A stretch of DNA of 47,329 nt from Candidatus Peribacteria bacterium RIFCSPHIGHO2_02_FULL_51_15 (GCA_001788965.1 MFXU01000004.1:1-47329), one strand, 5' to 3'; counted from the first letter of the stretch, positions 6,328-40,460 are shown. The notes: generated by a model not told the origin, from the letters alone. Program-made: numbers and translations.

Positions 6328-6470
6328 TTAAATTGCTAAATTGTTAAATTGTTCGCCGGCCTTCGCCAATTTCAACTCTGCTATCCTCTTTGAAGGCTAC
6401 GGTCAGCAAGCAAGCGAAACGCGCGATAGTGCGTGCAAACAATTTAGCAATTTAGCCATTTAGCAATTTT
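6328..6470. repeat. L-family periodic-arm palindrome (L1)
   Basis: Left arm is TAAATTGC/TAAATTGT octamers, right arm is their complement (ACAATTTA GCAATTTA). The core contains GCAAGCGAAACGCGCG, shared with L2, L3 and L7. Confidence 0.8.
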
Positions 6471-6476
6471 CATAAT

Positions 6477-8279
6477 TCAATCGAAGCTTGCCTCCAGCTT
6501 CCGTTCTTTGATTTCTTCCACCGTCTTCATAATAAATTCCCCGAGCGGAACCGTCACTTGCTTTTTGGTCTTCACATTTCTTACCGTAACGGTTTTTTCC
6601 GCCGCCTCGCGGTCACCGACGACAACCAGGTAAGGAATCTTCATTGTTTCCCCTTCTCTGATCCGTTTGCCCAAAGATTCGGCGCTGGTTTTTAGATCTA
6701 CGCGGATCGAATTTTCTTTGAGTTTCAGGGCGATTTCCGTCGAATATTTTTCATGCGTCGCGGCTACGGGCAGTACTGCAACCTGCACCGGAGAGAGCCA
6801 CAGCGGAAAGAGTCCGGCAAATTGCTCGATCAAAAAACCGATCAAACGCTCATGAGTCGAAAGCGGCGCCCGGTGAATACAGATGGGAACTTTCTCAGAT
6901 CCGTCCTTGTCGATGTATTTGAGTCCCAGCTTGCCCGGCACGTCGAAGTCGACCTGATTTGTCGCCAGTGTGAATTCCCGGCCGATGGCGCTCCAGACTT
7001 CGACATCTATTTTCGGTCCGTAAAACGCGGCTTCGTTCGGCACTTCGATGAATTCGATTCCGGATTCTTTCATCGCGCGGCGAACCATGTCTTCCGTCTT
7101 CAGCCAGAGCTTGCGGTTATCGACATATTTTTTTCCGAGCTCTTTCGGGTCATGCAAAGAGAGCCGCATTACGTATTTCTTTATTCCGAAAAGATCGAAA
7201 TATTCCAGATACATTTTCATAACTCCGATGAATTCTTCCTCAAACTGTTCCTCGGTTACGTACATGTGCGCATCATTCATGTTCATCGACCGGACACGCA
7301 TCAGCCCAAAAAGCGCGCCTGAATCCTCATAACGGTAACAATGTCCATATTCAGCGAGACGCATCGGCATGTCACGGTAACTACGAAGCTGCGAAGCGAA
7401 AATCTGATGATGATGCGGGCAATTCATCGGCTTCAAAAAATATTCACCTTCCTCCTTATCGAGTTTCATTGGCGGGAACATGCTTTGTTTGTAATGCGCC
7501 AGATGTCCGGTCTTCTCATAAAGCTTGCCCTTGGCGATATGCGGCGTGCGAACGCGCAGATAACCGGCAGCTTCTTCGGTTTCTTTGGCGAGTTTCTCGA
7601 TCTCATCGGCGATGATGGTTCCGCGAGGCGTCCAGAGCGGCAAACCCGGCCCTACGTCTTCCGAAAAAATAAACAAATCCAGCTCCTTTCCGAGTTTCCG
7701 GTGATCCCGTTTTTTGGCCTCTTCGAGCATTTTCAGATGATTCTCCAGCTCGGTTTTTGAACCGAACGCCGCGACATACACCCGGGTCAGCTGTTCACGC
7801 TTCTCATCCCCGCGCCAGTATGCGCCGGCCAAACTCATGACTTTGAAAGCGTCGACCGGAATTTCCTTCAAATTTCCCACATGCCCCCCGCGGCAAAGAT
7901 CGACGAAAGTTTCTTCGCCTTTCGGTCCGGTGTTCACGTAATGCGTTACCTCTTTCACTTTCTCTTCCTTTTCCAAATCTTCCACCAATTCAACTTTGAA
8001 TTTCTGTTTATGCTTTCGCCAGAATTTTTTGGCTTCGGCCACAGTCAGTTCTTCTTTTCTGAAAGTCTGACCCTGGTGAATGATCTTCCGCATCTCTTTC
8101 TCAATCTTCGGCAAATCGTCTTCGGAGATAGGCTCGGGGAAAAGAAAATCGTAATAACATCCGTCCTCGATTGGCGGTCCGATACTGATTAGCGTTCCGG
8201 GCCACAGATTCTGCACGGCTTGCGCAAGGACATGCGCGAGGGAATGCCGGAGCCGATATAAATCGTCAATTTTTTCCAT
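6477..8279 (-). CDS. thrS: threonine--tRNA ligase (no N-terminal TGS domain)
   Basis: 600 aa. It begins at the second additional domain (RHSLAHVLAQAV) and has a class II core plus a C-terminal anticodon-binding domain. Confidence 0.9.
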   Translation of the reverse strand: MEKIDDLYRLRHSLAHVLAQAVQNLWPGTLISIGPPIEDGCYYDFLFPEPISEDDLPKIEKEMRKIIHQGQTFRKEELTVAEAKKFWRKHKQKFKVELVEDLEKEEKVKEVTHYVNTGPKGEETFVDLCRGGHVGNLKEIPVDAFKVMSLAGAYWRGDEKREQLTRVYVAAFGSKTELENHLKMLEEAKKRDHRKLGKELDLFIFSEDVGPGLPLWTPRGTIIADEIEKLAKETEEAAGYLRVRTPHIAKGKLYEKTGHLAHYKQSMFPPMKLDKEEGEYFLKPMNCPHHHQIFASQLRSYRDMPMRLAEYGHCYRYEDSGALFGLMRVRSMNMNDAHMYVTEEQFEEEFIGVMKMYLEYFDLFGIKKYVMRLSLHDPKELGKKYVDNRKLWLKTEDMVRRAMKESGIEFIEVPNEAAFYGPKIDVEVWSAIGREFTLATNQVDFDVPGKLGLKYIDKDGSEKVPICIHRAPLSTHERLIGFLIEQFAGLFPLWLSPVQVAVLPVAATHEKYSTEIALKLKENSIRVDLKTSAESLGKRIREGETMKIPYLVVVGDREAAEKTVTVRNVKTKKQVTVPLGEFIMKTVEEIKERKLEASFD

Positions 8280-8295
8280 GGATTAATCATACATT

Positions 8296-8388
8296 ATTGT
8301 TAAATTGCTAAATTGTTAAATTGTTTGCATGCATGAAACAGGCGTTTCGCTTGCGAACAATTTAACAATATAACAATTTAGCAATTTA
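8296..8388. repeat. L-family periodic-arm palindrome (L2, short core)
   Basis: ATTGTTAAATTGCTAAATTGTTAAATTG ... CAATTTAACAATATAACAATTTAGCAATTTA, with core GCATGCATGAAACAGGCGTTTCGCTTGC. It fills the thrS-dnaA spacer. Confidence 0.8.
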
Positions 8389-9819
8389 TCAGGCCGCCAA
8401 CCCCACCTCCCGCTCAATAGTCCTCAGCTCCCTAAGCAATTGTGCGTCTTCCTGGATCTTGTTCTCGATCTTCCCCACCGCATGCATGACGGTCGTGTGA
8501 TCCCGGTTGGAGAAGGTCTCGCCCAGCCGGACGAAACTCATCCGGAGGAATTTCTTGCCCATATACATGGCAATATGCCGCGGAATCAACACCTCCCGGA
8601 CCCGCGACTGCCCCAGCATGTCCTGAACCGAAACCGAGAAATAACTGCTGACCCCCTCGAGCACGTCCTGAAAAGAAACTGCATGCTTGGCCGGCGGCTC
8701 AAAGCCGACTTGGCCGGCCAGCGCCGGATCGTCCGCCACCAGCTTCTGCATGATATCGGCGATGGATTTCACGGTCGGAACGAAATGCTCAAGCTCATAT
8801 TGGGCCACCGCCTGCATCAGAATGCCTTCCAGCTGCCGGACGCTCTTGGTCGCGTACTGCGCTATGTAATTCAAAACTTTTTCATCCAGGAGCAGTCCGT
8901 ATTCCTTGGCCTTCTCGGAAAGGATGGCGTGGCGCGTCTCATAATCCGGCTGGCTCAAATCGGCGATCATCCCGCGCTCGAAGCGCGACACCAGCCGGTC
9001 CTGGAGGATTGTAAGCTCGCGCGGCGGACGGTCGGAGCTGATGATGATCTGTTTGCGTTCCTCGATGAGAGTGTTGAACGTGTGGAAAAGTTCCTCCTGT
9101 GTGCGGTCCTTGTTTGCCAGAAACTGGACGTCATCGATTATCATCACGTCTAACTCGCGGTAACGGCGCCGGAACTGCTCCATCTTCTGATGCTGGATGG
9201 CCTCTATCACCTGGTTCGTAAAATCTTCGGTAGTGGTATACAGCACGGTCGCGCCGGGCTGGTTTCTGAGTATTGCATTGCCGGTACCCTGCAAAAGATG
9301 TGTTTTCCCGAGACCTACCCCGCCATAAAGGAACAGCGGGTTGTATTTTCCGCCAGGCTGTGAAGCTACCGCGCAACAGGCGGCATGTGCCAGCCGGTTA
9401 TTGGGTCCGACTACGAAATTTTCCAGAGTGTATCTGGAGTTCAGTATTTTGCTTACCAGGCCCTCGGCCAGTTTTATTTCACCTTTGTTCGGCAACTTGC
9501 GTCCGCGTTTTTTTTCCGGAAAATGTTCGAGTAGCTTGAGCGTACGGGCCAGATCATCTTTGAGTCCGACATCTACCTGATACACGACCTGCTCGATCGT
9601 GGGATCCGTTTCTTTCAATGCTTCCAGGGTGAGTCCGCGATAATGCTCCAGATGCCAATTTAGAAACATGGGTAGCGGCAAACCGATAATCACCGTCTTT
9701 TCTTCACGACCCAGCACGGTCGTGTCTTTAAACCAGGTTATGAACTGCCCGCGCGGTAACCCGCGCTCGATTTTCTCCAGAACCTTCAGCCACAGATCGA
9801 GGTCGACAGAGGAGGTCAT
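8389..9819 (-). CDS. dnaA: chromosomal replication initiator DnaA
   Basis: 476 aa. Walker A GGVGLGKTHL, Walker B MIIDDVQF, C-terminal DNA-binding domain (NRDHTTVMHA). Confidence 0.95.
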   Translation of the reverse strand: MTSSVDLDLWLKVLEKIERGLPRGQFITWFKDTTVLGREEKTVIIGLPLPMFLNWHLEHYRGLTLEALKETDPTIEQVVYQVDVGLKDDLARTLKLLEHFPEKKRGRKLPNKGEIKLAEGLVSKILNSRYTLENFVVGPNNRLAHAACCAVASQPGGKYNPLFLYGGVGLGKTHLLQGTGNAILRNQPGATVLYTTTEDFTNQVIEAIQHQKMEQFRRRYRELDVMIIDDVQFLANKDRTQEELFHTFNTLIEERKQIIISSDRPPRELTILQDRLVSRFERGMIADLSQPDYETRHAILSEKAKEYGLLLDEKVLNYIAQYATKSVRQLEGILMQAVAQYELEHFVPTVKSIADIMQKLVADDPALAGQVGFEPPAKHAVSFQDVLEGVSSYFSVSVQDMLGQSRVREVLIPRHIAMYMGKKFLRMSFVRLGETFSNRDHTTVMHAVGKIENKIQEDAQLLRELRTIEREVGLAA

Positions 9820-9820
9820 T

Positions 9821-10933: not shown

Positions 10934-11062
10934 GAAATTTACAGGCAAATCGGAACTTACCAGTACTGTGTAAAACTAAATAGTTTTCCACACCCACTTT
11001 CGCTTGCGGTCTACTTAGAAGAAGTAGCTGGTATTAAGATGAAAAATAAAGCGCTCACAATA

Positions 11063-12073: not shown

Positions 12074-12222
12074 AGTCTCTTTATATTTCTTAATTAAGTT
12101 TAAGTCAAATTTATAGACAGTGAACGACCAGTGAACTTTCCGCCAGAATAGAACGCTCTCTTCTGGAGAGAACGCCTACAAATCTCAATGGTGGTGCCTG
12201 CTGGACGAAATTATAACCGATT

Positions 12223-12406: not shown

Positions 12407-12429
12407 TAGCACAATTTCCCCAACCATTC

Positions 12430-15297: not shown

Positions 15298-15452
15298 CAA
15301 ATTGTTAAATTGATAAATTGTTAAATTGCTTGCATGCAACAACGCGCGTTTCGCTTGCTTGCCGGACAGAGCTCTTCATCAAACAGAGCTTTAACCACTA
15401 TTGAGCGAAGGCTGGCGAACAATTTAGCCATTTAACAATTTAACAATTTGGC
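15298..15452. repeat. L-family periodic-arm palindrome (L3)
   Basis: Arms are AAATTGTTAAATTGATAAATTGTTAAATTGC / GAACAATTTAGCCATTTAACAATTTAACAATTTG. The core contains CGCGCGTTTCGCTTGCTTGC and GCGAAGGCTGGCG, as in L1 in the opposite orientation. Confidence 0.8.
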
Positions 15453-19923: not shown

Positions 19924-20352
19924 TCAACCGGTGCTGCCGAACCCGCCCCGTGTCTCCGACCCGTGCGAAGAGACCTCTTTCCACTCCGCCCGGTCGATTT
20001 TGACGAAGAGCCCCTGCGCTATCCGCTCCCCTCTCTCGACCGTCACCGGATGATCGGTGGTGTTTTGAACCTGGACGAAAATCTCATCTTTTTCTCCATG
20101 GTAATCATGGTCGATTAGGCCGAGAGAATGCGGGCAAATCAGGCCTTTTTTCCGGGGCAGCGAAGAACGCGGCAATATCAGCAAAGCATAGCCATCCGGT
20201 ACTTTTACAATCACGTTTCCCGGAACCAGACCGATGGATTTGGGCTCAATTATCGTGGTTTCACGAGTTATCAGATCAAAGGCCGCCGCCCCCCCGGTTT
20301 GGTATTGGGGTAGGGGCAAGGTGGAATCTATTCGTTGAATCTGAGCTTTCAT
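19924..20352 (-). CDS. dut: dUTP diphosphatase
   Basis: 142 aa. Motifs GAAAFDL, GLIDHDYHGE and C-terminal RGGFGSTG. Confidence 0.9.
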   Translation of the reverse strand: MKAQIQRIDSTLPLPQYQTGGAAAFDLITRETTIIEPKSIGLVPGNVIVKVPDGYALLILPRSSLPRKKGLICPHSLGLIDHDYHGEKDEIFVQVQNTTDHPVTVERGERIAQGLFVKIDRAEWKEVSSHGSETRGGFGSTG

Positions 20353-20795
20353 TGCTAAATTGTTAAATTGCTAAATTGTTAACTTCAAATTCGTGAATTT
20401 TATGAGGGCATTGATTTCCTTTGGTAATTTCTGCGGCTCAGAAAGGATGTGTCTATAATGCTGTTCTGTAAGTAATTTCCTCTTTTTCGATTTTTGATTC
20501 CAATCAAGAGATTCCTTAACAGATCCAAAACTGTAACGATAGAAATTAACTTTGTCTTTTTTGCCATATCGGCCAAATCCTTCCGCGATATTGGCCGAAA
20601 TAGAATCGACTGCTCTGACAAACTGCTTACCAACCGTATCCTTCGGAAAATAATCCCATTTTATAACCGCATCCCAAACAAAGTTTGAGAGATGAAAAGC
20701 CATTTTGTAAGCGCCAACATCATTAAGGGAAAGAAAAGTTTTTTCCATATCTAATTTTTTAAAATAACAATTTAGCAATTTAACAATTTAGTAAT
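20351..20795. repeat. L-family periodic-arm palindrome carrying an ORF in its loop (L4)
   Basis: The left arm ATTGCTAAATTGTTAAATTGCTAAATTGTTAAC (20351-20383) is complementary to the right arm TAACAATTTAGCAATTTAACAATTTAGTAAT (20765-20795). The enclosed gene's stop codon lies inside the left arm. Confidence 0.75.
20371..20748 (-). CDS. four-helix-bundle protein (23S rRNA intervening-sequence protein / Avd-like family)
   Basis: 125 aa. YKMAFHLSNFVWD..., VRAVDSISANIAEGFGRYGKKDKVNFYRYSFGSVKES is characteristic of the PF05635/TIGR02436-type family. Confidence 0.75.
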   Translation of the reverse strand: MEKTFLSLNDVGAYKMAFHLSNFVWDAVIKWDYFPKDTVGKQFVRAVDSISANIAEGFGRYGKKDKVNFYRYSFGSVKESLDWNQKSKKRKLLTEQHYRHILSEPQKLPKEINALIKFTNLKLTI

Positions 20796-24694: not shown

Positions 24695-24798
24695 AAGTAA
24701 GGAAGGTAATGGAGGTAAGGGAGGTAAGGGAGGTGACGAAGCAAGGGAATCGCGACACCTTCCTTACTTTCCTTACGTTCCTTACCTACCTTACCTTT
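24695..24798. repeat. K-family periodic-arm palindrome (K1)
   Basis: Arms are AGGTAAGG-type octamers (AAGGAAGGTAATGGAGGTAAGGGAGGTAAGGGAGG) and their complement. The core GTGACGAAGCAAGGGAATCGCGACACC is related to the K2 core. Confidence 0.8.
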
Positions 24799-24887
24799 CT
24801 TTTGCTTCTCCTAAAACATATAACCATATAACAATATATCAATATAACAATTCCTTAGAGCTGAAATTTAAGCCAAAAACCGCTATA

Positions 24888-25541
24888 ATGATAGGAAAAC
24901 TAACACATACATCCATGTCCGCTCTGTCCCCCGCTTACGACAACAAGATAGTTCGAAAATATTCGGCGCGCACAATCGAGCATAAGGCGGAAAACAAAGC
25001 CGCTCTGGCGGAAGAGCTGGGGTGGATCTTTGAACCCAGGCAGCCGATCCTCTGCCTGCCTTGCGGGCTCACGGACGAACTCGGCGGTGAACTGTTCCAT
25101 CAGGTGCTTCCGGGGATTTTGGAACTGCCGGTCAATATTATCGTGCGCGGCCGCGGCTCAAAAAAATACGGCGAGCTATTCACTTCTCTCACAAAAAATA
25201 TGAAACACCGGGTGGCCATAATTCAGGACGATGAAATCCATCTCAGAAAGATGTTGGCCGGTTCGGATATGGCGATTTTCTTTTCCGATAAAGAGGAAGA
25301 GGAATTCGAAAACGCGCTGCGTTACGGCGTCGTACCGATTACTCCTCCGAGGGACACAGTGGAAAACTATAATCCGGTACAGGAAATCGGCAATTCATTC
25401 GTATACGAAAATCCCACACCCTGGCTATGCTTCGCCAGTCTGGTGCGGGCACTGGAAACATTCAAGTTTCCATACGACTGGCGCACGATTGAGCGGCATG
25501 CGATGGAATCGGTGGATCGACGGACGGTAATTCAGGTGTGA
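24888..25541 (+). CDS. glycogen-synthase-like (GT5) C-terminal half with a degenerate active-site region
   Basis: HKAENKAALAEELGW..., RYGVVPI.. and the ending align with the GlgA C-terminal Rossmann half. The SRFEPCGL block is replaced by SDKEEEEF. There is no N-terminal half. The stop TGA doubles as a MITE target duplication. Confidence 0.5.
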   Translation: MIGKLTHTSMSALSPAYDNKIVRKYSARTIEHKAENKAALAEELGWIFEPRQPILCLPCGLTDELGGELFHQVLPGILELPVNIIVRGRGSKKYGELFTSLTKNMKHRVAIIQDDEIHLRKMLAGSDMAIFFSDKEEEEFENALRYGVVPITPPRDTVENYNPVQEIGNSFVYENPTPWLCFASLVRALETFKFPYDWRTIERHAMESVDRRTVIQV

Positions 25542-25676
25542 TACCACTTCGCGTTTAAAACGTTCTTAATCAGACGCGCTGGCGGTATGGAGTTCTTGGC
25601 TTGAGTAAACGCTACGCGGTACGAGATGATGCCGTTACGAATGACCGATTAGTTATGTTTTAAATGCAAAATGGTA
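25542..25676 (+). mobile_element. 135-bp MITE, copy 2 (TSD TGA)
   Basis: Identical sequence. TGA at 25539-25541 and 25677-25679. Confidence 0.85.
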
Positions 25677-25747
25677 TGAAGCGGCGTTATTGATCAATTG
25701 GTCCGACTAGATTTGGTCATTCTTTAAGGAAACTCTGAAAAATTGCT

Positions 25748-25840
25748 AAATTGTTAAATGGCTAAATTGTTCGCAGGCGACACATGGATTTATTGTCAGC
25801 AATTTAACAATTTAGCAACTTAACAATTGCGTTAGGATAT
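25748..25840. repeat. L-family periodic-arm palindrome (L5)
   Basis: AAATTGCTAAATTGTTAAATGGCTAAATTGTTCGC ... GCAATTTAACAATTTAGCAACTTAACAATTGC. Confidence 0.8.
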
Positions 25841-26037: not shown

Positions 26038-26202
26038 AAAATTAAGAGAAATAAGAGAAAAAAGGATTGCGCGCGAAGTATAACCGTAAGGTTCTCCCAG
26101 GCAAGTTGATTTAACACTTTTATTTATTGTGTCTACATGTGCTTTATGGCTTATTTTACTTACCTTACCTACCTTATTTTCCTTACCTGCCTGACCTTTT
26201 TT

Positions 26203-26943
26203 ATGTATATTTCCCCAGCATTGCATAAATCTTTCTTTTTAATCGGCTTGCTTCTTGGCTCGTTGATACTCTCCGCCTGCGGTTCCGGGTCTGATACTTC
26301 AAAACCTCCTGCTCCGGACAGCTCAACGGGTTCGGGCCAACTGGAAACCTTGGAAACTTTGACCGCTAAAGCGGAACAGGGCCTCCCGTCTGCACAGTTC
26401 GAGCTTGGGACACTTTATTACGACGGCCAGGGCGGACTCGAAAAAGATGTTAAACTTGCACGCAAGTGGCTGGAGAAAGCCGCTGCCCGGGGCGAACCGA
26501 GGGCGCAGTTCAATCTCGGAGTCATGTACTACACGGGAATCGGGGTGAAACAGGACTATGCCGAGGCAAAAAAACTTTTCGAGGAATCCGCTGCGTCCGG
26601 CAATACGAGGGCGCAGTTCAATCTCGGAGTCATGTACTACCGTGGCGAAGGCATAAAACAGGATTACACCCAGGCACTGCGATACTTCACTACAGCGGCT
26701 GTCCAAAATTTCAATGAAGCGCAATTCAACATCGGCGTCATGTACGCCAAAGCCGAGGGAGTCAGTCAGGACATCGGAAAAGCTTATGCCTGGTTTTCAC
26801 TGGCTCGGGACAATGGGAACCCGAGAGCGGATGAAGCTATGAAAAATATCGAGCGCGGACTCGGTCCCGCCGACCTGAAAACCGTCAAAAAAATGGCCAA
26901 GGAGCTGAAAAGAAACGCTTTGAGCGGGACGACGAAAGAATAA
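26203..26943 (+). CDS. Sel1-repeat lipoprotein
   Basis: Signal peptide with lipobox LILSAC. About five Sel1-type repeats (AQFNLGVMYY.G.G..QDY..A). Confidence 0.75.
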   Translation: MYISPALHKSFFLIGLLLGSLILSACGSGSDTSKPPAPDSSTGSGQLETLETLTAKAEQGLPSAQFELGTLYYDGQGGLEKDVKLARKWLEKAAARGEPRAQFNLGVMYYTGIGVKQDYAEAKKLFEESAASGNTRAQFNLGVMYYRGEGIKQDYTQALRYFTTAAVQNFNEAQFNIGVMYAKAEGVSQDIGKAYAWFSLARDNGNPRADEAMKNIERGLGPADLKTVKKMAKELKRNALSGTTKE

Positions 26944-27216: not shown

Positions 27217-27492
27217 ATGTCAGAAGCAGCGAGCACGGTCGAAATTCCGACGGTTGATCTCGGAAGCACCTATGAGGCAAATCGAAAAGTTGAGGATCTC
27301 GGAAAACTGGAGGGTGTTCAATCCACACGCGTTGAAGACAATAGAGTAATCCTCACCGTGAGTTCTGATGCAGCTCAAGACGTTCATTATATTCTCCGCG
27401 CAGCTGGATTGAGGCCATGGAATAGTGCTCGTTGTTTCCAGAAACTCGATCCGAACAACTGTGATACCACTTCGCGTTTAAAACGTTCTTAA
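27217..27492 (+). CDS. hypothetical small protein whose C-terminus is encoded by a MITE
   Basis: 91-aa ORF. The last 10 codons (DTTSRLKRS*) lie inside MITE copy 3. The reconstructed pre-insertion end would be ..NNCER*. Confidence 0.4.
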   Translation: MSEAASTVEIPTVDLGSTYEANRKVEDLGKLEGVQSTRVEDNRVILTVSSDAAQDVHYILRAAGLRPWNSARCFQKLDPNNCDTTSRLKRS

Positions 27493-27599
27493 TCAGACGC
27501 GCTGGCGGTATGGAGTTCTTGGCTTGAGTAAACGCTACGCGGTACGAGATGATGCCGTTACGAATGACCGATTAGTTATGTTTTAAATGCAAAATGGTA
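27465..27599 (+). mobile_element. 135-bp MITE, copy 3 (TSD TGA)
   Basis: Identical sequence. TGA at 27462-27464 and 27600-27602. Confidence 0.85.
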
Positions 27600-27678
27600 T
27601 GAGAGATAGTTGAGATATGTTCGAGGTATGGAACGAGGGAGTTCCAATTCAGTCTAATCTCGTCCACCAGAATTAAGT

Positions 27679-29206: not shown

Positions 29207-29260
29207 TGTAGGAAGGATAACTTAAAACCAAAGTGTATATCTGCCATAAGATAAAACGGC

Positions 29261-30342: not shown

Positions 30343-30461
30343 AAGAGAGGTCATTGAAGTGACTAAGGTGACCGATTCAACCGGAAATTTGGAGAGGTTT
30401 TTGGTTACTGGTTTATGGTTTTTGTTTCAGCTGCCACTCTTTACTCGAACAACTGTATGTG

Positions 30462-30787
30462 CTCAGAAATTGGCTGATATCAGGTAGTGTTCACATATAA
30501 CTGCAAACAAAAAATCGCTTCACCTTTGACTCCGCAGCCACGGAGGGCTGCTGCTGTTTTAAAAAAAATCTTTTTCCACTCAGCAGCGCCCCTCCGCGGG
30601 CGCGGCAACTGCTCGTTGCCTTCGAGTAGTCATACCATTTTGCATTTAAAACATAACTAATCGGTCATTCGTAACGGCATCATCTCGTACCGCGTAGCGT
30701 TTACTCAAGCCAAGAACTCCATACCGCCAGCGCGTCTGATTAAGAACGTTTTAAACGCGAAGTGGTATCATTCAGCCAATTCGTGAG
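30462..30787 (-). mobile_element. about 188-bp TIR element (contains B-family hairpin B2), interrupted by MITE copy 4
   Basis: TIR CTCAGAAATTGGCTGA (30462-30477) pairs with TCAGCCAATTCGTGAG (30772-30787). The body is about 98% identical to the reverse complement of 47174-47329. Confidence 0.7.
30633..30767 (-). mobile_element. 135-bp MITE, copy 4 (TSD TCA, i.e. TGA)
   Basis: Reverse-complement copy. TCA at 30630-30632 and 30768-70. The uninterrupted homologous site lies at 47190-47193. Confidence 0.9.
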
Positions 30788-30870
30788 TTCCTTCGAACAA
30801 CTTCATAACCAAAAACTAGAAACTTTTCAGTACCTCGGTCGCGTCGGTCCCCTCGGTTCCTTCGGTCACC

Positions 30871-31477: not shown

Positions 31478-31651
31478 CCAAATTGTTAAATTGTTATATT
31501 GCTAAATTGTTCGCCCATTCGATTAGCTCAGGGCGACCTTATCGACACACAAACATGAGTGTCATCATGGGCGACCTGAGCTTGTCGAAGGTCGCAAGCG
31601 AAAACCACGTTTCTTGAATGCTTAACAATTTCGCAATTTAGCAATTTAACA
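31478..31651. repeat. L-family periodic-arm palindrome (L7)
   Basis: CCAAATTGTTAAATTGTTATATTGCTAAATTGTTCGC ... GCTTAACAATTTCGCAATTTAGCAATTTAAC. The core has GCAAGCGAAAAC plus a GCTCAGGGCGACC unit. Confidence 0.8.
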
Positions 31652-32634: not shown

Positions 32635-32743
32635 TTCATGAGAGACAAACCTGCGGTTTTTCTCTCATGTGCTCTCTTTTCCTTTAAGCGGAGCGGCTCC
32701 AGCGCGGGAACCCGCGCCCTTCGACAGGCTCAGGGCGATCTGA

Positions 32744-32878
32744 TACCACTTCGCGTTTAAAACGTTCTTAATCAGACGCGCTGGCGGTATGGAGTTCTTG
32801 GCTTGAGTAAACGCTACGCGGTACGAGATGATGCCGTTACGAATGACCGATTAGTTATGTTTTAAATGCAAAATGGTA
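32744..32878 (+). mobile_element. 135-bp MITE, copy 5 (TSD TGA), inserted inside a GCTCAGGGCGA-CTGAGCTTGTCGA palindromic unit
   Basis: Identical sequence. TGA at 32741-32743 and 32879-32881. The flanks reconstitute the unit seen intact at 31569-31590. Confidence 0.85.
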
Positions 32879-33054
32879 TGAGCTTGTCGACGACCGAGAC
32901 CCGCGCTTCGCCGCAGCTTTTTTTATTTTGGTTGTTCAAGTAAATCAATATTCAGCAGCGGCCTTTCAGGCCGCGGTGATACAAGAATGAATTTCTTAAT
33001 TCTAAATCGGGGATTGGCTCTCGCGAACACCACCTGTTAAAATAATTTTGGTGT

Positions 33055-33188: not shown

Positions 33189-33395
33189 AACAGCAACAAG
33201 TAATAGTAGACCGCCGTGACGGCGATCCAGCTTAAGTAATTCGCGAGTTCCGACACTACCAAAGCCTTTCGGTTTCGGTCTCAGCCGGCCTCTCGATTGC
33301 TCCGAAGACGATCTGTCTCAGAAAACACAAATCGCCGAACCCCACTTTCATATTCTTCATCGCCTTTCCCCTTCTACTTTTAAACGTTGCCGTTA

Positions 33396-33530
33396 TACCA
33401 CTTCGCGTTTAAAACGTTCTTAATCAGACGCGCTGGCGGTATGGAGTTCTTGGCTTGAGTAAACGCTACGCGGTACGAGATGATGCCGTTACGAATGACC
33501 GATTAGTTATGTTTTAAATGCAAAATGGTA
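33396..33530 (+). mobile_element. 135-bp MITE, copy 6 (TSD TTA)
   Basis: Identical sequence. TTA at 33393-33395 and 33531-33533. Confidence 0.85.
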
Positions 33531-33726
33531 TTAGAAGAAAAGATCATGCAAACACATGTCTGCGCTAGTACTATATACTATTTTCATTTTTTTTGTATAT
33601 GTTCAAATAATTAGTACAAAAAGCTATTTCGTCACAATCAATTCCGCTTGTACAAGGGTAAATGTTGCAAAAAGGTTAATGAGTTTCTATAACGGTCTTA
33701 ATTTCTACCACTTCCCTCATTTTATT

Positions 33727-35594: not shown

Positions 35595-35647
35595 TCTGTA
35601 TATTCTAGCAGATATAAGCCATTTTTTCCATAGACAACATGGTAACT

Positions 35648-35836: not shown

Positions 35837-35849
35837 ACTTACACAACAT

Positions 35850-35931
35850 GGAGGAAACCGAAGAGTCCGATGAAACCGATGAAAGCTGCTTTTCCTCGGA
35901 CTCTTCGGTTTCCTCGGTTTCTTCGGATTCC
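35850..35931. repeat. F-family periodic-arm palindrome (F1)
   Basis: Arms have GAAACCGA/AGAGTCCGA-type 8-9-nt units and their complement. Core is GAAAGCTGCTTTTC. Confidence 0.8.
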
Positions 35932-35976
35932 CTCTCGAACATGGAAAACATCCACGAACCCCGCTACTCTTTCATC

Positions 35977-36471
35977 ATGCGCATCCTCGGTATCGATCCC
36001 GGGCTTACCGCCGCCGGTTTGGGTTTGATCGAATGCCGAAACACCGAGACAGCGGTCGTCGAATGGCTGACGATAACTACTGAAAAAACTTTTTGCCTGT
36101 CGGAACGGCTGGGTGAGCTGGCGAGAGATCTGCGGACATATCTCAAAGAAACAAACCCGGATCTGGCCGTCGTGGAGAAACTCTTTTTCGCCGCGAACCG
36201 CCGCACAGCTATGGACGTTGCCCATGCGCGGGGAGTGATACTGCTTACTCTCAGAAACGAAAACATCGACGTACTCGAAGTCACGCCGCTCGAGCTGAAA
36301 ACGGCGATAGCCGGAGACGGCACCGCCGACAAACGCCAGATGCAGGAAATGGTGAAGAGACTGCTCAAATTGAATGAAATCCCCTCCCCCGCCGATGCCG
36401 CGGACGGTCTGGCTCTCGCTCTGTATGGCGCTTATTGCAGCAGGAACAAAGGGGCATTATTGACGGTTTGA
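35977..36471 (+). CDS. ruvC: crossover junction endodeoxyribonuclease RuvC
   Basis: MRILGIDPGLTAAGLGLIE start, with a later ADAADGLALALY motif. The N-terminal extension in the track runs through repeats and was rejected. Confidence 0.85.
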   Translation: MRILGIDPGLTAAGLGLIECRNTETAVVEWLTITTEKTFCLSERLGELARDLRTYLKETNPDLAVVEKLFFAANRRTAMDVAHARGVILLTLRNENIDVLEVTPLELKTAIAGDGTADKRQMQEMVKRLLKLNEIPSPADAADGLALALYGAYCSRNKGALLTV

Positions 36472-37563
36472 TATCACCACCCCTTTATTGACTTCCCAAA
36501 CAGCGGTATCTCTGTATATCGGAACCTGATGCGTCGAAGTGATCAAAACCTGGTTCCCGGACAACGCTTTCAGAAGCGCTTCCTGATGCCTGTCATCCAG
36601 CTCCGAAAGCACGTCGTCAAGCAACACAGTCGGCCGTTCGCCGGAAACCTCTGCCAAAATATCAGCGCTTCGAAGCAACAGAGCAAGCAGGCAGGTGCGC
36701 TGTTGGCCGCGGGAAGCGAATTTCTCGAGTGGATGTCCGCGAAGCACCAGATGCCAATCATCCCGGTGAGGACCGACAGTAGTGGTACAAAGCATCAAAT
36801 CTATGTCTATCGATCCGGAGAGAAAGGTCTGAAATTCTTTTTTCAGCACCGAGGCTTCCGTTGCCTGAGTTTTTCTTTCATAAACCATCAGCGCATCATC
36901 GGACTCTTCACTGAGCAATGCCAGCGACGTTTTCAAACCGACGTTAAAAAGGCCGATGATTTTTATCCGGCGCAGCTGCACTTCAGCCGCGGTATGCGCC
37001 AGCTGATCATCCCAAAGCGTCACTTCGTTTTTTTCAGCCTGACCTTCGGAAATCCTTTTTAGAAGCGCGTTGCGTTGCCTGAGAAGCCTATCATATTCGA
37101 CCCTCAGACTCGTATAATTATCGTCGGTTTGGGAGATGAGAATATCGAGAAAACCTCTCCTGTGCTGCGGTGCACCGGTGAAAAGATCCAGATCCTCAGG
37201 CAGGAAAATCACGGTCTTGAGCGCCCCCACGAATTTAAGCAGCGGCAGGCGCACATCATTTATAAATGTCGCACATTTGCGCCGCGGAGCCCGTTGCCAG
37301 ACATATTCCAGGCTGCAAGCCGAACTGTCTGCCATTTCACCTTCGGCCCGGATGCGGAAAAAATCCGCCCCCCACCGGAGCACGTCATCCGGAGCGGCCT
37401 TTAGACACGACCGGCCATAAGACAAAAAAGAGAGCGCTTCGATCAGGTTCGTCTTGCCGCCGCCGTTCGGCCCGACGAACACATGCCGCCTGGCATTTCC
37501 AAGAGACAACGCGAGCCGATCATATGACCGCATATTTTCCAGTGACAGGGATTTAATTCGCAC
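36457..37563 (-). CDS. recF: DNA replication and repair protein RecF
   Basis: Walker A GPNGGGKTNLIEAL, Walker B VLLDDVLSELD. GTG start. The 3' end overlaps ruvC convergently by 15 nt. Confidence 0.9.
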   Translation of the reverse strand: MRIKSLSLENMRSYDRLALSLGNARRHVFVGPNGGGKTNLIEALSFLSYGRSCLKAAPDDVLRWGADFFRIRAEGEMADSSACSLEYVWQRAPRRKCATFINDVRLPLLKFVGALKTVIFLPEDLDLFTGAPQHRRGFLDILISQTDDNYTSLRVEYDRLLRQRNALLKRISEGQAEKNEVTLWDDQLAHTAAEVQLRRIKIIGLFNVGLKTSLALLSEESDDALMVYERKTQATEASVLKKEFQTFLSGSIDIDLMLCTTTVGPHRDDWHLVLRGHPLEKFASRGQQRTCLLALLLRSADILAEVSGERPTVLLDDVLSELDDRHQEALLKALSGNQVLITSTHQVPIYRDTAVWEVNKGVVISNRQ

Positions 37564-37614
37564 ACACGGATTGTAGATAAAGAATCAAGAATTTTACATT
37601 TTAAATTCTACATT

Positions 37615-38076
37615 CTACATTTCTTCGTTTTTACTTTTTTTCCCAAATTCATCTAATACTGAATAAATTACATCCAAATATTCCTTTCGCTTTATGAATT
37701 CCTTTAATCCCTCCCGAGTCACCCATCTGTAATCATTTATTTCCGAGTTATCCACTTTTATCACAGGCTCTACGTCGATTTTCACGACTACAAAACTTAA
37801 TGTTTGGCCGGAATTCGCGGCTTTGAAACGCTCGATGTATTCCGGCGGAAAATCGTAGCTGTAAGTTATCCGGCTCATAAAATCGATTCCGCTTATTTTC
37901 AACCCTGTCTCCTCGCGAAGTTCCCTTTTGGCCGCTTCCCGGTCGCTCTCCCCGGCCTCTATCCCCCCCTGCGGCAGCTGCCAGGCATCGGCCAGGCGGG
38001 GCTTATGTACAAGCAATATTTCGGGTGACTTATCTTTCAGCGCTAAAATTGAAACAGCCTTGCGATATTTCTTCAT
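37615..38076 (-). CDS. NUDIX hydrolase (RppH-like)
   Basis: Nudix box GGIEAGESDREAAKRELREETGL. Confidence 0.75.
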   Translation of the reverse strand: MKKYRKAVSILALKDKSPEILLVHKPRLADAWQLPQGGIEAGESDREAAKRELREETGLKISGIDFMSRITYSYDFPPEYIERFKAANSGQTLSFVVVKIDVEPVIKVDNSEINDYRWVTREGLKEFIKRKEYLDVIYSVLDEFGKKSKNEEM

Positions 38077-38111
38077 GTTTTGGATTATACCTTTTTATGA
38101 AATATGCCAGA

Positions 38112-38203
38112 AAGAAACCGAGGAAACCGAAGAGTCCGAAGAGTCCGAGGAAATGCTGATAATCCTCGGTTTCGTCGGTTTCTTCGGCTTCTTCGGTTTC
38201 CTC
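38112..38203. repeat. F-family periodic-arm palindrome (F2)
   Basis: GAAACCGAGGAAACCGAAGAGTCCGAAGAGTCCGAGG - GAAATGCTGATAATC - CCTCGGTTTCGTCGGTTTCTTCGGCTTCTTCGGTTTCC. Confidence 0.8.
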
Positions 38204-38207
38204 TTTT

Positions 38208-38384
38208 TTAACTTGAGTGTTTCTCCTCCTTCAGCTTAACTTTGGTCTGTTTCCTGCAACGATTGCAAAATTTCTCAAGCGGCCGGAAATCGGCCTTTTT
38301 CGCTTTTGATATCCGGACCGTGGTCGTCCGGGCATTGCAATCCGTACAAAAGCCGGCGTAAACAGTCTTCTTGCCGCGTGGCAT
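38208..38384 (-). CDS. rpmG: 50S ribosomal protein L33 (absent from the supplied ORF track)
   Basis: My own translation gives MPRGKKTVYAGFCTDCNARTTTVRISKAKKADFRPLEKFCNRCRKQTKVKLKEEKHSS*. It has the CxxC...CxxC spacing and the KFC.RCRK.T block typical of L33. Confidence 0.7.
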   Translation of the reverse strand: MPRGKKTVYAGFCTDCNARTTTVRISKAKKADFRPLEKFCNRCRKQTKVKLKEEKHSS

Positions 38385-38396
38385 AGCCCGGAGACT

Positions 38397-39290
38397 CTAC
38401 TGTGAGACGGCAAGAAGCGCAAGACCCAGGAAAACCAGCATGAAACTGAGGAGTTTCGCGCGCACCGAATCGGCATCCAGCAGTTCCTTCGGAGTGAAAG
38501 ACGGCGTATGCCGATGGCATAACCATCCTAAGATCATCACTATAAACGGTTGGATATTGCCGACGATCGAAACCAGCGACAGCTGCCCGGTGCGATACGA
38601 GAGCGTTCCGAAATACTCGCCGAGAAAAAACAAACCGATCACCGAAGCAGCCATGAGGTAAAAGTGCGGACCGACTCGCGTATTGAGCGTCTTTACTCTC
38701 CGGCGCAAACTCGGTACAAACCAGACCCCGGAAAAGGAAAGCAGTTCGCGACCGATGAGCAGCCAGAAGAACACTGGCTCAATCGATAACCCGGCCGCCA
38801 TCGAAGCTTTTTTCGCAAGTGAAACCGGCACGTAGAAGATCGCCAGGCCCGTGAGCAGTGCCAGTGACCGGAATGTGATCAGGCGGCTGCGCTGAAGAGG
38901 CAGGAGCAGGGCTCCGCCAAGCACCAGCGCGGCGCCCAACCCCTGGTTAAAAGACCACGCTTCATCGAAGAGCAAAAATCCCGCAATACTGAGCAAGATC
39001 GTCAGAATTGCCCACGCCAGACTGCTGATGGATGCGTCCACCCGCTCCAAAATAAGGAAGAAATAAATGTCTCCGAGATAAGCCGCCATGCCGGCAAGCA
39101 TGAGCATCGGCCACCATGCTGTATGAACATCGATCAGCAGGGAAAGCAGAATGAGCGCCGGCACGGTAAAAAGCGACTGGCTCCAGAGCAAAATCAGAGG
39201 ATGTTTCTCGTACCGTTTGACCAGCGAAGAGTCGATTACGCTGATCCCGGCCCACGCCGCAGTCGCAGCCAGAACAAGTGGGAACCACAT
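38397..39290 (-). CDS. EamA/DMT-family transporter
   Basis: 297 aa, about ten TM helices in two repeated halves. Confidence 0.7.
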   Translation of the reverse strand: MWFPLVLAATAAWAGISVIDSSLVKRYEKHPLILLWSQSLFTVPALILLSLLIDVHTAWWPMLMLAGMAAYLGDIYFFLILERVDASISSLAWAILTILLSIAGFLLFDEAWSFNQGLGAALVLGGALLLPLQRSRLITFRSLALLTGLAIFYVPVSLAKKASMAAGLSIEPVFFWLLIGRELLSFSGVWFVPSLRRRVKTLNTRVGPHFYLMAASVIGLFFLGEYFGTLSYRTGQLSLVSIVGNIQPFIVMILGWLCHRHTPSFTPKELLDADSVRAKLLSFMLVFLGLALLAVSQ

Positions 39291-39307
39291 TGGGGGAAGT
39301 ATACATA

Positions 39308-39431
39308 AAAGGTAAGGAAGGTAAGGGAAGTAAGGGAGGTGACGAAATAAAAGAAAGCGAGATACCTTCCTTGCTCTCCTTACTTCCGTACCTTCCTTAC
39401 TTTCCTTACCTTCCTTACCTTCCTTACCTTT
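39308..39431. repeat. K-family periodic-arm palindrome (K2)
   Basis: GGTAAGGAAGGTAAGGGAAGTAAGGGAGG - GTGACGAAATAAAAGAAAGCGAGATACC - complementary CCTTACNT units. Confidence 0.8.
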
Positions 39432-40373
39432 CTATGCCATTCCCCCTTTATGCCCGTTCCCCTGCAGATAATTGAATACGCTGTTTGCCGCTACCGATCC
39501 TTCGCCGGCCGCCGTGGCGAATTGGGCGAAGTGATTGCTCCCGCTAGTCAGATCGCCGGCTGCGAAAACTCCCGGCACATTGGTACCCTGGCCGGCATCG
39601 ACTTTCAGGAAACCCATCTTGTCGAGCTCACAGACGAGCTTCTGCGGCAGCTCCACCGCAGGATCGGAGCCGATTTCGATGAACACCCCATCAAGCTTCA
39701 GCTCATCCGAGCCTTCGAACGGTTTGTCGAGCTTCACCGCATTTACTTTTTGATCTCCCAAAACCTGAACCACATTCCGCTCCAAAACGAATTTAATGTT
39801 TAGCCGGCTCTTTACCTGGTCGATCCAGTACGGCTCTGCCCGTAAATCTTTGCGGCGATGAATCAGGTAAACGGTCTTGGCCACCTGCGCCGCTATGGCC
39901 GCGCCTTCGACCGCACTGTCCCCGCCTCCGATGACCGCCACTGTCTTCCCGCGGTAAAAGAACGCATCGCACGTGGCGCAATAAGTCACACCTTTTCCCG
40001 AGAATTCTTTTTCGCCGGGTATCCCGAGCTTCCGCTTCACCGAACCCGTGGTGAATATCACTGTCCGGCCGTCGACGGTTTCACCGCTCCCGAGAGTCAG
40101 GCGAAAACCGCCGTCAATCAAAGCCACTTCTTTCACAAAAGAAATTTTATATGTAACCAGATCACCGAAGCTCAAAGCGTGTTTTTTGAAATTCTCCATT
40201 AAATCCGGACCCTTTATTTCGATGTTTCCGGGCCAGTTTCCCACTTCGGCCGCCGTATTGCCCATACCACCTTCTTCGGCTCCAACAAGATACGTTTTCA
40301 GCTTGTACCTTGCCGTGTAAATCGCCGCGGTGTAACCAGCACTTCCGAGACCGATTATGAGAACATCAAACAT
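39432..40373 (-). CDS. trxB: thioredoxin-disulfide reductase
   Basis: GLGSAGYTAAIY FAD motif, redox centre CATCDAFFY, NADPH motif GGGDSAVEGA. Confidence 0.9.
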   Translation of the reverse strand: MFDVLIIGLGSAGYTAAIYTARYKLKTYLVGAEEGGMGNTAAEVGNWPGNIEIKGPDLMENFKKHALSFGDLVTYKISFVKEVALIDGGFRLTLGSGETVDGRTVIFTTGSVKRKLGIPGEKEFSGKGVTYCATCDAFFYRGKTVAVIGGGDSAVEGAAIAAQVAKTVYLIHRRKDLRAEPYWIDQVKSRLNIKFVLERNVVQVLGDQKVNAVKLDKPFEGSDELKLDGVFIEIGSDPAVELPQKLVCELDKMGFLKVDAGQGTNVPGVFAAGDLTSGSNHFAQFATAAGEGSVAANSVFNYLQGNGHKGGMA

Positions 40374-40377
40374 ATTT

Positions 40378-40460
40378 GATAGATATAAGATATAAGATGA
40401 AAGATATAAGTACTTATATCTTATGTCTTACATCTTACATCTTTCTCACATCTTACATCT
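40378..40460. repeat. T-family periodic-arm palindrome
   Basis: GATATAAG/GATGTAAG-type octamers (ATATAAGATATAAGATGAAAGATATAAGTA) face CTTATATCTTATGTCTTACATCTTACATC. Confidence 0.75.

Follow-up and report, generated by a model that had tools for sequence, protein, structure and literature searches.

The locus studied here, from a bacterium of the candidate phylum Peribacteria, raises the question of what the palindromes in its gene spacers are, each of them built of short tandem units, and how they are made and kept. The initial annotation had described one architecture recurring in at least 12 spacers, in several sequence families, and had taken the elements for intergenic repeats. The window, that is, the whole stretch of DNA analysed, is 47,329 nt (47 kb) long.

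Paired tandem arrays in the spacers

A detector combining Tandem Repeats Finder with complementarity found 35 arrays of short period in the window, and 12 pairs that are palindromic. Markov shuffles (n = 50) gave 0.46 arrays and no pair per 47 kb, and real DNA from viral contigs, which were picked for carrying arrays of K- or F-type units, gave 152 arrays and no pair in 1.12 Mb. The density of arrays in the window is about 35 times the background, and 11 of the 35 have no partner. Tandem Repeats Finder placed arrays of period 7-9 wherever an element had been named, and an inverted-repeat finder joined these arrays into pairs, the arms being 22-57 nt long and 72-96% complementary. With 12 pairs against none in shuffles, the recurrence of one architecture in at least 12 spacers was borne out. 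The arms also proved complementary on folding: all 12 elements form a single long hairpin on either strand (z of -3.2 to -11 against dinucleotide shuffles). Sequences 99.5-100% identical occur in independent assemblies of the same population (ENA, JGI and two NCBI bins), and therefore the elements are not an assembly artefact. The inverted tandem-unit architecture is real and highly non-random.

All 12 elements sit between protein-coding or tRNA genes, in a window without rRNA, and about one third of the gene spacers hold such hairpins. With the Rfam covariance models only tRNAs reached the gathering score, and the elements gave sub-threshold matches to miRNA-precursor hairpins. The features are listed below, with the strand where one is assigned.

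L1, 6328-6470: arms 6328-6353 and 6440-6469; 86-nt non-coding loop homologous to the L3 loop
L2, 8296-8388: minimal L element; arms 8296-8325 and 8356-8388; 30-nt loop TTGCATGCA..GCGTTTCGCTTGCG
L3, 15298-15452: arms 15298-15329 and 15418-15450; 89-nt loop; fold z -6.8
L4, 20351-20795, minus strand: complete cassette; octamer arms 20351-20382 and 20757-20795 around a gene
Four-helix-bundle protein gene, 20371-20748, minus strand: 125 aa; TIGR02436 / PF05635, "23S rRNA intervening-sequence protein"
K1, 24695-24799: AGGTAAGG(R) units; arms 24695-24734 and 24760-24799; fold z -8.9
Solo L-type arm, 24818-24851: AACAATAT units; adjoins K1
L5, 25740-25832: arms 25740-25771 and 25798-25828; short unique loop
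K-type solo arm, 26150-26203: inside the first codons of a Sel1-repeat gene
L6, 29254-29342: L arms in the divergent spacer between truB and a 186-aa gene
L7, 31478-31651: arms 31479-31511 and 31622-31651; 110-nt structured loop; divergent spacer; z -7.5
F1, 35850-35931: palindrome built from 9-nt units; lies 5' of the true ruvC start
Decayed heptamer palindrome, 37575-37625: AATGTAG-type units; NUDIX/SMC-like spacer; MFE -9.9
F2, 38112-38203: palindrome of 9-nt units in the spacer between a conserved 58-aa zinc-ribbon ORF and a NUDIX gene
K2, 39308-39431: K-type palindrome filling the trxB-EamA spacer; z -10 to -11
T, 40355-40468: GATATAAG-type units; fills the divergent trxB/phosphoribosyltransferase spacer; z -4.8 and -7.0

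Six L elements have L4-like arms around short non-coding loops and carry no ORF. L1 lies in the thrS-lgt spacer beside a 139-nt dispersed repeat (MFE of the minus-strand fold -50.7); L2 (fold z -8.5) takes up the whole dnaA-thrS spacer as far as the dnaA stop codon, and its loop is also found in a Peribacteraceae MAG (L026, L104); L3 ends 3 nt upstream of the ATG of a 173-aa gene. The L core that had been reported, GCAAGCGAAAC, is common to L1, L2 and L3 and occurs with one mismatch in L7. Its direction relative to transcription is inconsistent, being one way in L1 and L3 and opposite in L2. Both L5 and L6 stood as elements, with their limits moved: L5 starts at 25740, not 25748, and the paired arms of L6 begin at 29254 instead of 29261. 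The solo arm beside K1 is an addition to the earlier list, and the relative L335 has a complete L-type palindrome in the matching spacer.

K1 occupies a divergent spacer upstream of a 5'-3' exonuclease gene, and K2 starts immediately 3' of the trxB stop codon. The cores described for these families were found again, GGTGACGAA...GCGA.A.ACC in K1 and K2 and GAAA.GCTG.T..TC in F1 and F2. Since members share loop sequence as well as arms, L, K and F are true dispersed families, as the division into several families had implied. No ORF-bearing master copy of K, F or T was found in the window and the fetched loci. F1 is not in coding sequence, the true ruvC start lying downstream. The solo K arm reported at about 26155-26195 exists, but it is not intergenic. 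The related arm suspected at 37575-37620 turned out to be a decayed palindrome, of which better-preserved versions with similar units occur in the relatives L202 and L026. The pair proposed at 30396/30803 is doubtful, because it offers about 13 complementary bases across 378 nt, with the unrelated 139-nt repeat between them.

Some short-period arrays fall within coding sequence in this lineage; those in a murD-like ORF, for example, are insertions specific to the lineage. Mutational bias may thus account for some of the pattern.

The gene within L4 and its relatives elsewhere

The interior of L4, which had been read as pure spacer, is an ORF on the minus strand that matches TIGR02436 (NCBIfam, E 2.3e-21) and PF05635 (Pfam, E 8e-20). 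The earlier description, of purely intergenic repeats belonging to no recognisable class, had overlooked a gene. L4 lies between ftsZ and dut, and both neighbours share its minus-strand orientation. Its arms, 39 nt and 90% complementary by the inverted-repeat finder, fold when joined at -35 kcal/mol (z -9.8), and the last codons of the gene (TTA ACA ATT TAG) are themselves the first unit of the downstream arm. The protein has more than 4000 homologues, with 70-81% identity across CPR phyla and Bacteroidota. The other 11 elements of the window contain no ORF, and no gene remnant was detectable in its ORF-less L loops.

We surveyed relatives of this gene in 80 fetched loci from other organisms. 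Short-period arrays flank 58 of the 79 relatives on both sides, on one side in 20 and on neither in 1, against a background of 4%; conversely, 49 of the 51 array pairs spaced more than 250 nt apart enclose a gene of this type. The build is that of L4: about four octamers upstream, which share the conserved core ATTG(T/C)T, and a complementary set downstream, with both arrays directly adjoining the ATG and the stop codon. The L arm is not confined to this genome and is also present in Bacteroidota, Gammaproteobacteria, cyanobacteria and many CPR phyla. The gene runs in the same direction as the upstream neighbour in 60 of 65 loci, and as the downstream one in 63 of 66, and co-oriented long ORFs stand on both flanks of 48 of 53 related cassettes.

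In a logo of the units made with no motif prior, six core positions hold 1.1-1.9 bits and two spacer positions 0.2-0.5. The number of units per arm has its mode at four (37/78 upstream, 39/78 downstream). Arms are more complementary within a locus than between loci (15.8 vs 12.4, p 1e-10), and they agree in type, with 69 T/T loci, 5 G/G and 2 mixed (Fisher 1e-6). The G-type loci, in which ATTGTT/AACAAT has become ATGGTT/AACCAT, belong to at least four separate protein lineages, and one of them is the orthologous cassette of L335. Other gene subfamilies have other tandem arms: heptamers in L123 and in Chryseobacterium, 9-mers in L158. In the stems of gene-bearing cassettes the excess of sense-strand stability was not significant (41 vs 29 loci, p 0.11), with G-U pairs at 204 vs 175, and selection at the RNA level over the DNA level is not supported by this measure.

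It is clear from these results that arms and gene go together across phyla, that the core is conserved, that the unit number is constrained and that a change in one arm is matched in the other. For all the families, a common generating or recognition mechanism had been proposed. For L it is supported by the conserved hexamer core, the modal four units and the concerted switching of arms, whereas for K, F and T we infer a share in it from their architecture.

Turnover among relatives and likeness to known systems

At the ftsZ-dut site the cassette is present in the window, L334 and L335 and has been inherited vertically among genomes whose FtsZ proteins are 90% identical. In L336, where the site is empty, a conventional short GC hairpin with a T run stands instead, and filled and empty sites give no clean alignment. 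The expectation that close relatives share the elements held in part: F1, F2 and L6 have counterparts in L202, but K2 is absent there and in L203, the orthologous spacer being 30 nt. The F1 copy in L202 is shorter and decayed, and F1 is missing from L203 and L204; F2 is kept at the matching position in L202 and absent in L204; and the L6 counterpart in L202, which lies 5' of the orthologous gene, combines L arms with a loop that is different and L3-like. Relatives also have other arrays in matching spacers, such as AAGCTTT heptamers at the K2 position. In L044, L arms enclose what is left of the gene, its last 35 codons (E 5e-12), and this locus is a deletion intermediate. Thus, the elements are gained, lost and decaying between related genomes.

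Among the analogies offered earlier, that with IVS stem-loops proved to be the key, L4 carrying the gene of the IVS protein. In the 23S IVS of Coxiella, a 28-bp terminal stem adjoins a variable number of tandem GACAGAT heptamers, and mapped RNase III cuts include one at the first repeat (PMC4990558). Such rRNA IVSs are sporadic and horizontally transferred, and their ORF tends to decay (PMC4990558, PMC11270868). The rRNA IVSs of Leptospira, Coxiella burnetii and Brucella (S23p / PF05635, Xanthomonas-type protein) resemble the present elements in a cassette of about 430-445 nt, inverted repeats that enclose a PF05635 ORF and pair into a stem of some 28-40 bp, short tandem units of variable copy number at the stem, an ORF prone to decay, and a sporadic, horizontally transferred distribution. 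They differ in lying within helices of 23S or 16S rRNA, whereas the present elements lie between protein-coding genes, have arms made up wholly of octamers, about four in each, whose ATTGYT core is conserved, and include many ORF-less miniatures in other spacers. Cleavage by RNase III, which removes the IVS from the transcript with no religation, has been shown for Coxiella (PMC4990558) and would be expected of the present elements by analogy.

The REPIN-RAYT system consists of REP doublets that form hairpins and of a RAYT gene flanked by inverted REPs. As here, a single-copy gene lies within inverted repeats that are also dispersed as ORF-less intergenic hairpins, and the repeat type is apparently matched to the gene subfamily; but REPs are single where the present arms are tandem arrays, and the gene flanked here encodes a PF05635 four-helix protein without HUH/Y1 transposase motifs. 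The Correia elements (NEMIS) of Neisseria are MITEs of about 100-150 bp whose hairpin is an RNase III substrate in mRNA and which may have outward promoter-like boxes. They too are intergenic palindromes, co-transcribed with neighbouring genes, but their inverted repeats are simple ones of 26 bp with a TA target duplication, and they are not known to have tandem units or a four-helix gene. Long TIRs of short tandem units also mark the foldback (FB) transposons, found in Drosophila and other eukaryotes, and their unit number is variable and their central cargo variable or absent, as here. These transposons, however, belong to eukaryotes, are far longer and depend on a transposase for movement, and no relationship is implied. 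Cyanobacterial STRRs share short (7-nt) tandem units in intergenic DNA. They are not known to form inverted pairs around a loop or to be linked to a gene, and this earlier analogy therefore adds little.

The product of L4 also belongs to the superfamily of Avd, an accessory protein in diversity-generating retroelements (DGRs), which is a pentameric four-helix bundle, and PF05635 is the commonest DGR-associated family (PMC10053308). The context differs, the present cassette standing alone between housekeeping genes. No reverse transcriptase, template or variable repeat adjoins the cassettes examined, and the genes called in the window, where the neighbours of L4 are ftsZ and dut, do not include a reverse transcriptase.

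The proposed cassettes and miniatures, and other explanations

We consider it somewhat better than an even chance that the elements are IVS-type stem-loop cassettes and their ORF-less miniatures, here in spacers between protein-coding genes. The complete form would be a PF05635 gene held tightly, from start to stop codon, between inverted arms of about four tandem octamers (the core ATTG(T/C)T plus two free bases) and inserted sense-wise within an operon, as L4 is between ftsZ and dut. The six other L elements would be miniatures with L4-type arms, and K, F and T dispersed families of the same build with other units. A read-through transcript of any element would form a duplex of 25-45 bp, although read-through cannot be taken for granted for the 5 of 12 elements in divergent spacers. 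The duplex is probably cut by RNase III, by analogy with the rRNA IVSs, which would separate the neighbouring cistrons and release the loop; a search for rnc in the Peribacteria DNA examined did not find it. From L4, such cleavage would set free an almost leaderless mRNA that encodes the four-helix protein, and the downstream gene would be left with a very short leader. Slippage would change the unit number, and complementarity would be kept by selection for pairing or by arm-to-arm correction. Since the core is conserved, a sequence-specific factor that reads the units is suggested, for which the encoded four-helix protein would be the simplest candidate.

The palindromes might instead be a passive by-product, slippage making the arrays and hairpin-templated strand switching (quasi-palindrome correction) copying an arm, with neither function nor movement. 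The abundance of arrays, the 11 unpaired ones, those inside the murD-like ORF and the different arrays in matching spacers of relatives speak in its favour, and the whole-arm switches from ATTGTT to ATGGTT fit homogenisation. We nevertheless think it unlikely, for family members in different spacers have loop sequence in common and must thus be copies of one another, one octamer core surrounds one gene family in distant phyla, the unit number peaks sharply at four with no geometric decay, and array-rich real DNA lacks inverted pairs. Much the same low likelihood is given to tandem binding sites at the DNA level, most likely for the four-helix protein, which would serve as operators close to promoters or as outward promoters, the L elements forming a regulon and the gene being flanked by its own sites. 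A hexamer core with a free 2-nt spacer and four modal units does resemble an array of sites; the outward strand of each arm, AACAAT, agrees with TATAAT at 4 of 6 positions, including the key A2 and T6; and the downstream gene starts within a few bases of the array. Of the spacers in the window, pairs occupy 5 of the 7 divergent, 7 of the 23 co-directional and none of the 7 convergent ones, mostly 0-50 nt from a start codon, but this 5'-end bias is weak (about p 0.05) and does not appear in other genomes, where pairs lie in 17 co-directional, 4 divergent and 2 convergent spacers. Matches to sigma-70-type promoters are at shuffle level in the region, independent sites would not need the covariation of spacer bases between the arms of a locus, and we know of no DNA-binding activity in the PF05635 family.

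Movement as non-autonomous transposons (MITEs or foldback-type elements with subrepeated TIRs), the gene being cargo and the transposase lying elsewhere, for example in the rve integrase at 91-1332, would account for the dispersed families, terminal inverted repeats, variable cargo and presence or absence between relatives; the integrase ORF and the unrelated MITE-like 139-nt repeat indicate that transposition is active in the genome. It is a very unlikely explanation, however: no target-site duplication is visible at any of the 12 elements, no transposase lies in or adjoins about 80 cassettes, one cassette has been inherited vertically at its site, and codon-tight bracketing with 92-95% co-orientation with the neighbours is unusual for a transposon insertion. 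In the window and about 2.5 Mb of fetched loci, no autonomous element having a transposase with matching ends was found, and the sole ORF-bearing form encodes the four-helix-bundle protein. That the elements are ordinary, possibly bidirectional, intrinsic terminators or attenuators is hardly credible. They are long stable hairpins in intergenic spacers, and a T run follows the T and F2 hairpins on one strand; but all 7 convergent spacers are empty and 5 of the 7 divergent ones occupied, the U tract is mostly missing on the transcribed strand, a terminator scan (itself at shuffle level) does not call the elements, and the empty site of L336 has a conventional hairpin with T run in their stead.

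The reading as IVS-type cassettes and miniatures can be carried further. Solved relatives of the four-helix protein are pentameric rings. We speculate, while holding it rather improbable, that the units are a recognition code for this pentameric protein, and that protein and arms form an unrecognised transcript-gating system. One unit would be read per subunit, with about 4-5 units per arm, and the unit would be specific to the protein subfamily: ATTGYT octamers here, and CAAATAA, ACTYATA and GACAGAT heptamers elsewhere. The protein would compete with hairpin formation or with RNase III, and the constant arms might be docking sites for cassette exchange, as the same arms and different loops of orthologous L6 elements may illustrate. 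Such a system would be widespread in CPR bacteria and Bacteroidota, and each genome would have dozens to hundreds of spacers at which it partitions or gates operon transcripts.

The gene in L4 links these hairpin repeats to a kind of element that is widespread and has been poorly understood. If the recognition code is true, it would give the enigmatic IVS/S23p/Avd-like family a function beyond retroelements and rRNA.

Array palindromes of the window

The window is part of a chromosome, has a G+C content of about 50% and carries the housekeeping genes lgt, thrS, dnaA, rseP, ftsA, ftsZ, dut, truB, ruvC, trxB and mur together with five tRNAs; the 23S and 16S rRNA genes lie outside it. The initial annotation had described twelve palindromes (L1-L7, K1-K2, F1-F2 and T) whose inverted arms consist of tandem 8-9-nt units. 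TRF found a period of 7-9 nt at every one of these places, and an inverted-repeat finder paired the arrays. An array detector with a mismatch penalty of -3 was too strict and returned only 2 pairs, so that a detector combining TRF with arm complementarity was used instead. It gave 35 arrays and 12 palindromic pairs in the window, as compared to 0.46 arrays and no pairs in Markov shuffles of the window (n = 50). In a control of 1.12 Mb of real viral DNA, chosen for similar unit arrays, 152 arrays and no pairs were detected.

Folding bore out the complementarity of the arms: on both strands, every element forms a single long hairpin (z-scores -3.2 to -11). Independent assemblies give the same sequence, and an assembly artefact is therefore excluded. 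Contigs of the same population (L001-L006 and L196-L201) were 99.5-100% identical to the window; no variation in unit number was found among them, and only breakpoints at a 139-nt repeat were seen. The loop sequence is common to the members of one family, which indicates that the members are copies of each other and not independent inventions.

No Rfam family matched the elements, and a permissive threshold yielded only noise resembling miRNA-precursor hairpins. Integron attC sites and CRISPR arrays were also considered and rejected: the elements have arms on both sides, and both an integrase and the alternation of spacer and repeat are absent.

The 139-nt repeat, one copy of which abuts L1, has no relation to the array palindromes.

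Copies of the 139-nt dispersed repeat (six, 98-100% identical)
6189-6329
25537-25677
27456-27600
30632-30768 (reverse)
32743-32879
33392-33533

Its ends are imperfect inverted repeats of about 23 nt (ATACCAyTT.GC.TTTAAAAC.T), it folds at -43.8 kcal/mol (z -2.8), and it has no match in Rfam. Exactly at its copies, metagenome contigs from the same population break off or change context. The repeat resembles a recently active MITE.

A gene enclosed by paired arms

The initial annotation overlooked a gene enclosed by L4, the palindrome of the ftsZ-dut spacer (20351-20795, minus strand). The 367 nt between the L4 arms correspond to this gene.

20371-20748, minus strand: gene for a 125-aa four-helix-bundle protein

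The protein matches TIGR02436 (E 2.3e-21) and PF05635, '23S rRNA intervening-sequence protein' (E 8e-20). It has more than 4000 relatives, of which the closest are 70-81% identical and belong to many CPR phyla and to Bacteroidota. Its AlphaFold model has a pLDDT of 54.6, and the only match of a profile search in the PDB was weak (2rld, E 0.0015).

Among species-representative genomes, the L arm was found in Bacteroidota, Gammaproteobacteria, cyanobacteria and CPR, in more than 109 stretches altogether, of which about 20 have a nearby inverted partner. By phmmer with the single window protein, the gene adjoined only 2 of 109 L-arm loci. Because most of these loci carry ORF-less or single arrays, we examined the association from the side of the gene, using 80 metagenomic loci that encode relatives of the L4 gene.

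Searched for periodicity without a motif prior, almost all of the 80 loci showed period-8 arrays, with ATTGTT upstream and AACAAT downstream. Of the 79 ORFs lying away from contig ends, 58 were flanked by arrays on both sides and 20 on one side only, and a single ORF had none, against a background of 4%. When inverted array pairs were spaced by more than 250 nt, the gene was enclosed in 49 of 51 cases. The bracketing is tight: the upstream array reaches the ATG, and the last codons are encoded by the first downstream unit (e.g., TTA ACA ATT TAG). In the window, the start codons of dut, thrS and a 173-aa gene directly adjoin arrays. The gene was co-oriented with its upstream neighbour at 60 of 65 loci and with its downstream neighbour at 63 of 66. 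The number of units per arm peaked at four. In the unit logo, N-A-T-T-G-T/c-T-N, the core positions carry 1.1-1.9 bits and the two spacer positions 0.2-0.5 bits.

In a cassette, by which we mean the gene plus both arms, one arm is coupled to the other. Complementarity was higher between the two arms of one locus than between arms of different loci (15.8 vs 12.4, p 1e-10). The variant upstream core ATGGTT is accompanied by AACCAT downstream (T/T 69, G/G 5, mixed 2; Fisher 1e-6), and the G-type loci are spread over at least four separate protein lineages.

Miniatures, turnover and neighbouring features

Some elements have the same arms and no ORF, and we call these miniatures. At locus L044, L arms surround what is left of the gene, its last 35 codons (E 5e-12); this locus is a deletion intermediate. 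The L2-type loop was found again in another Peribacteraceae genome (L026, L104), and the start of this loop, TGCATGCA, occurs in the leader of the cassette in the relative L335. A search for gene remnants in the loops of L1, L3 and L7, the region 30396-30826 and the long spacers found none.

The tandem-unit arms differ in other subfamilies of the gene: L123 and Chryseobacterium defluvii have heptamers, and L158 has 9-mers around a gene remnant. No copy of K, F or T that carries a gene was found, and the architecture of these families suggests that they may be linked to the L family. Viral contigs with K and F units contained neither inverted pairs nor master copies when scanned; the F-unit matches there may be repeats in coding sequence. 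In the cultured isolate Chryseobacterium defluvii (L040, 3180-3330), a composite palindrome has outer arms of GTAAAAYC-type octamers, within which lies an unpaired run of L-type TAAATTGY units. Mixed-unit array palindromes thus exist in cultured Bacteroidota, a possible experimental system.

Two relatives, L334 and L335 (FtsZ 90% identical), carry a cassette at the same ftsZ-dut site as the window, and all eight units of the L335 cassette are of the G type. In L336 (FtsZ 82% identical) this site is empty, with a 79-nt spacer that holds an ordinary GC hairpin and a T run. In the trxB region, the related loci L202 and L203 have a 30-nt spacer that lacks K2. F2 is kept in L202 and absent from L204, F1 is present and decayed in L202, and L6 is kept in L202 beside the same gene with a different loop. 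The window spacer with K1 and a solo L arm corresponds in L335 to a complete L palindrome. These presences, absences, decays and swaps indicate that the elements persist vertically and yet are also gained, replaced and eroded.

Other features of the window and of related contigs
46000-46021, 46109-46132, 47042-47071: in-frame tandem heptamer arrays in a murD-like ORF (45844-47193)
L202 4044-4067, 4994-5032, 5108-5141: different arrays in the murD-like ortholog
26146-26205: K-type solo arm of CCTTACCTT units, forming the first ~19 codons (MAYFTYLTYLIFLTCLTFF...) of a called Sel1-repeat gene with a hydrophobic N-terminus
35848-35976: start region of called ruvC, the call beginning at 35848 within palindrome F1
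38213-38389, minus strand: conserved 58-aa zinc-ribbon-like ORF (MPRGKKTVYAGFCTDCN...) between EamA and NUDIX
~38080-38095: -10-like box GGTATAAT, before the NUDIX ATG at 38076
8280-8295: -10-like box TATGAT, before the thrS ATG
L336 ~5335-5348: -10-like box TAGGAT, before dut
91-1332 and 1814-1889: rve-family integrase ORF (413 aa) and adjoining tRNA-Pro, left contig end

The murD-like array at 46000-46021 sits in an insertion absent from the L202 ortholog, and the other two fall where the alignment is poorly conserved. The arrays of this Mur ligase gene suggest a lineage-wide tendency toward 7-9-nt tandem duplications. At the K-type solo arm, repeat DNA could have been exapted into a membrane or signal segment, or the gene start could be miscalled. 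The ruvC call has 43 extra residues, acidic and serine-rich, which are absent from relatives, and the conserved N-terminus MRILGIDPG starts at codon 44. The zinc-ribbon-like ORF occurs in three relatives, and the L203 gene call fuses it to NUDIX. The -10-like boxes lie only 5-10 nt upstream of start codons, and a Shine-Dalgarno sequence is absent; the boxes suggest that many genes in these Peribacteria may be expressed from leaderless or near-leaderless mRNAs. The integrase/tRNA-Pro region may mark the border of an integrated element.

Relation to intervening sequences

IVSs, the intervening sequences of rRNA genes, and the S23p/PF05635 proteins encoded by the long ones have been known since the early 1990s, and we know of no accepted function or mode of spread. 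Their function and origin are described as unclear (PMC4990558). In Coxiella, the 23S IVS has a 28-bp terminal stem and GACAGAT heptamers in variable number, and RNase III cuts were mapped to the first repeat (PMC4990558). PF05635 ORFs are also found in insertions of CPR rRNA genes (PMC11270868). The literature covered, with few subscription journals among it, contained no description of such arms beyond the Coxiella heptamers, nor of a cassette outside rRNA.

On the best-supported reading, the elements are cassettes and miniatures of the IVS type that sit within operons. By analogy with the rRNA precedent, the arm duplex would be processed by RNase III. Stem stability did not differ significantly between sense and antisense. 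That the core is conserved and the unit number fixed points to a factor that reads the units, for which the obvious candidate is the encoded protein, since its solved relatives are pentameric rings (as cited in PMC4990558 and PMC10053308).

Long hairpins between genes might instead be transcription terminators, a reading that we disfavour, since pairs occur in none of the 7 convergent spacers, in 7 of 23 co-directional ones and in 5 of 7 divergent ones, and consensus scans for promoters and terminators stayed at shuffle level. A purely mutational origin of the arrays accounts for their general excess, including those within the murD-like gene, but it leaves unexplained the shared loops, the cross-phylum tie to the gene and the peak at four units.

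The known kind to which we assign these cassettes and miniatures is the IVS; their place outside rRNA, their arms of tandem units and the spread of miniatures through the genome are probably new. In practice, the elements and the 139-nt repeat lead to breaks in metagenome assemblies and to wrong gene calls, as in the ruvC call that starts inside F1. The vague question of what IVSs do becomes testable: whether the arms are cut by RNase III in mRNA, whether expression of neighbours is driven or insulated by the arms, and whether the 125-aa protein binds the units, with ATTGTTAA units compared to ATGGTTAA units. Judging by this locus and roughly 80 related loci, the cassette is far more general, and the rRNA IVS is one of its settings. 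Its rules are strict: each arm has about four units with a conserved hexamer core, the gene is bracketed codon-tight and lies in sense orientation in operons, and the arms switch together. ORF-less derivatives of the cassette fill about one third of the spacers in some CPR genomes.
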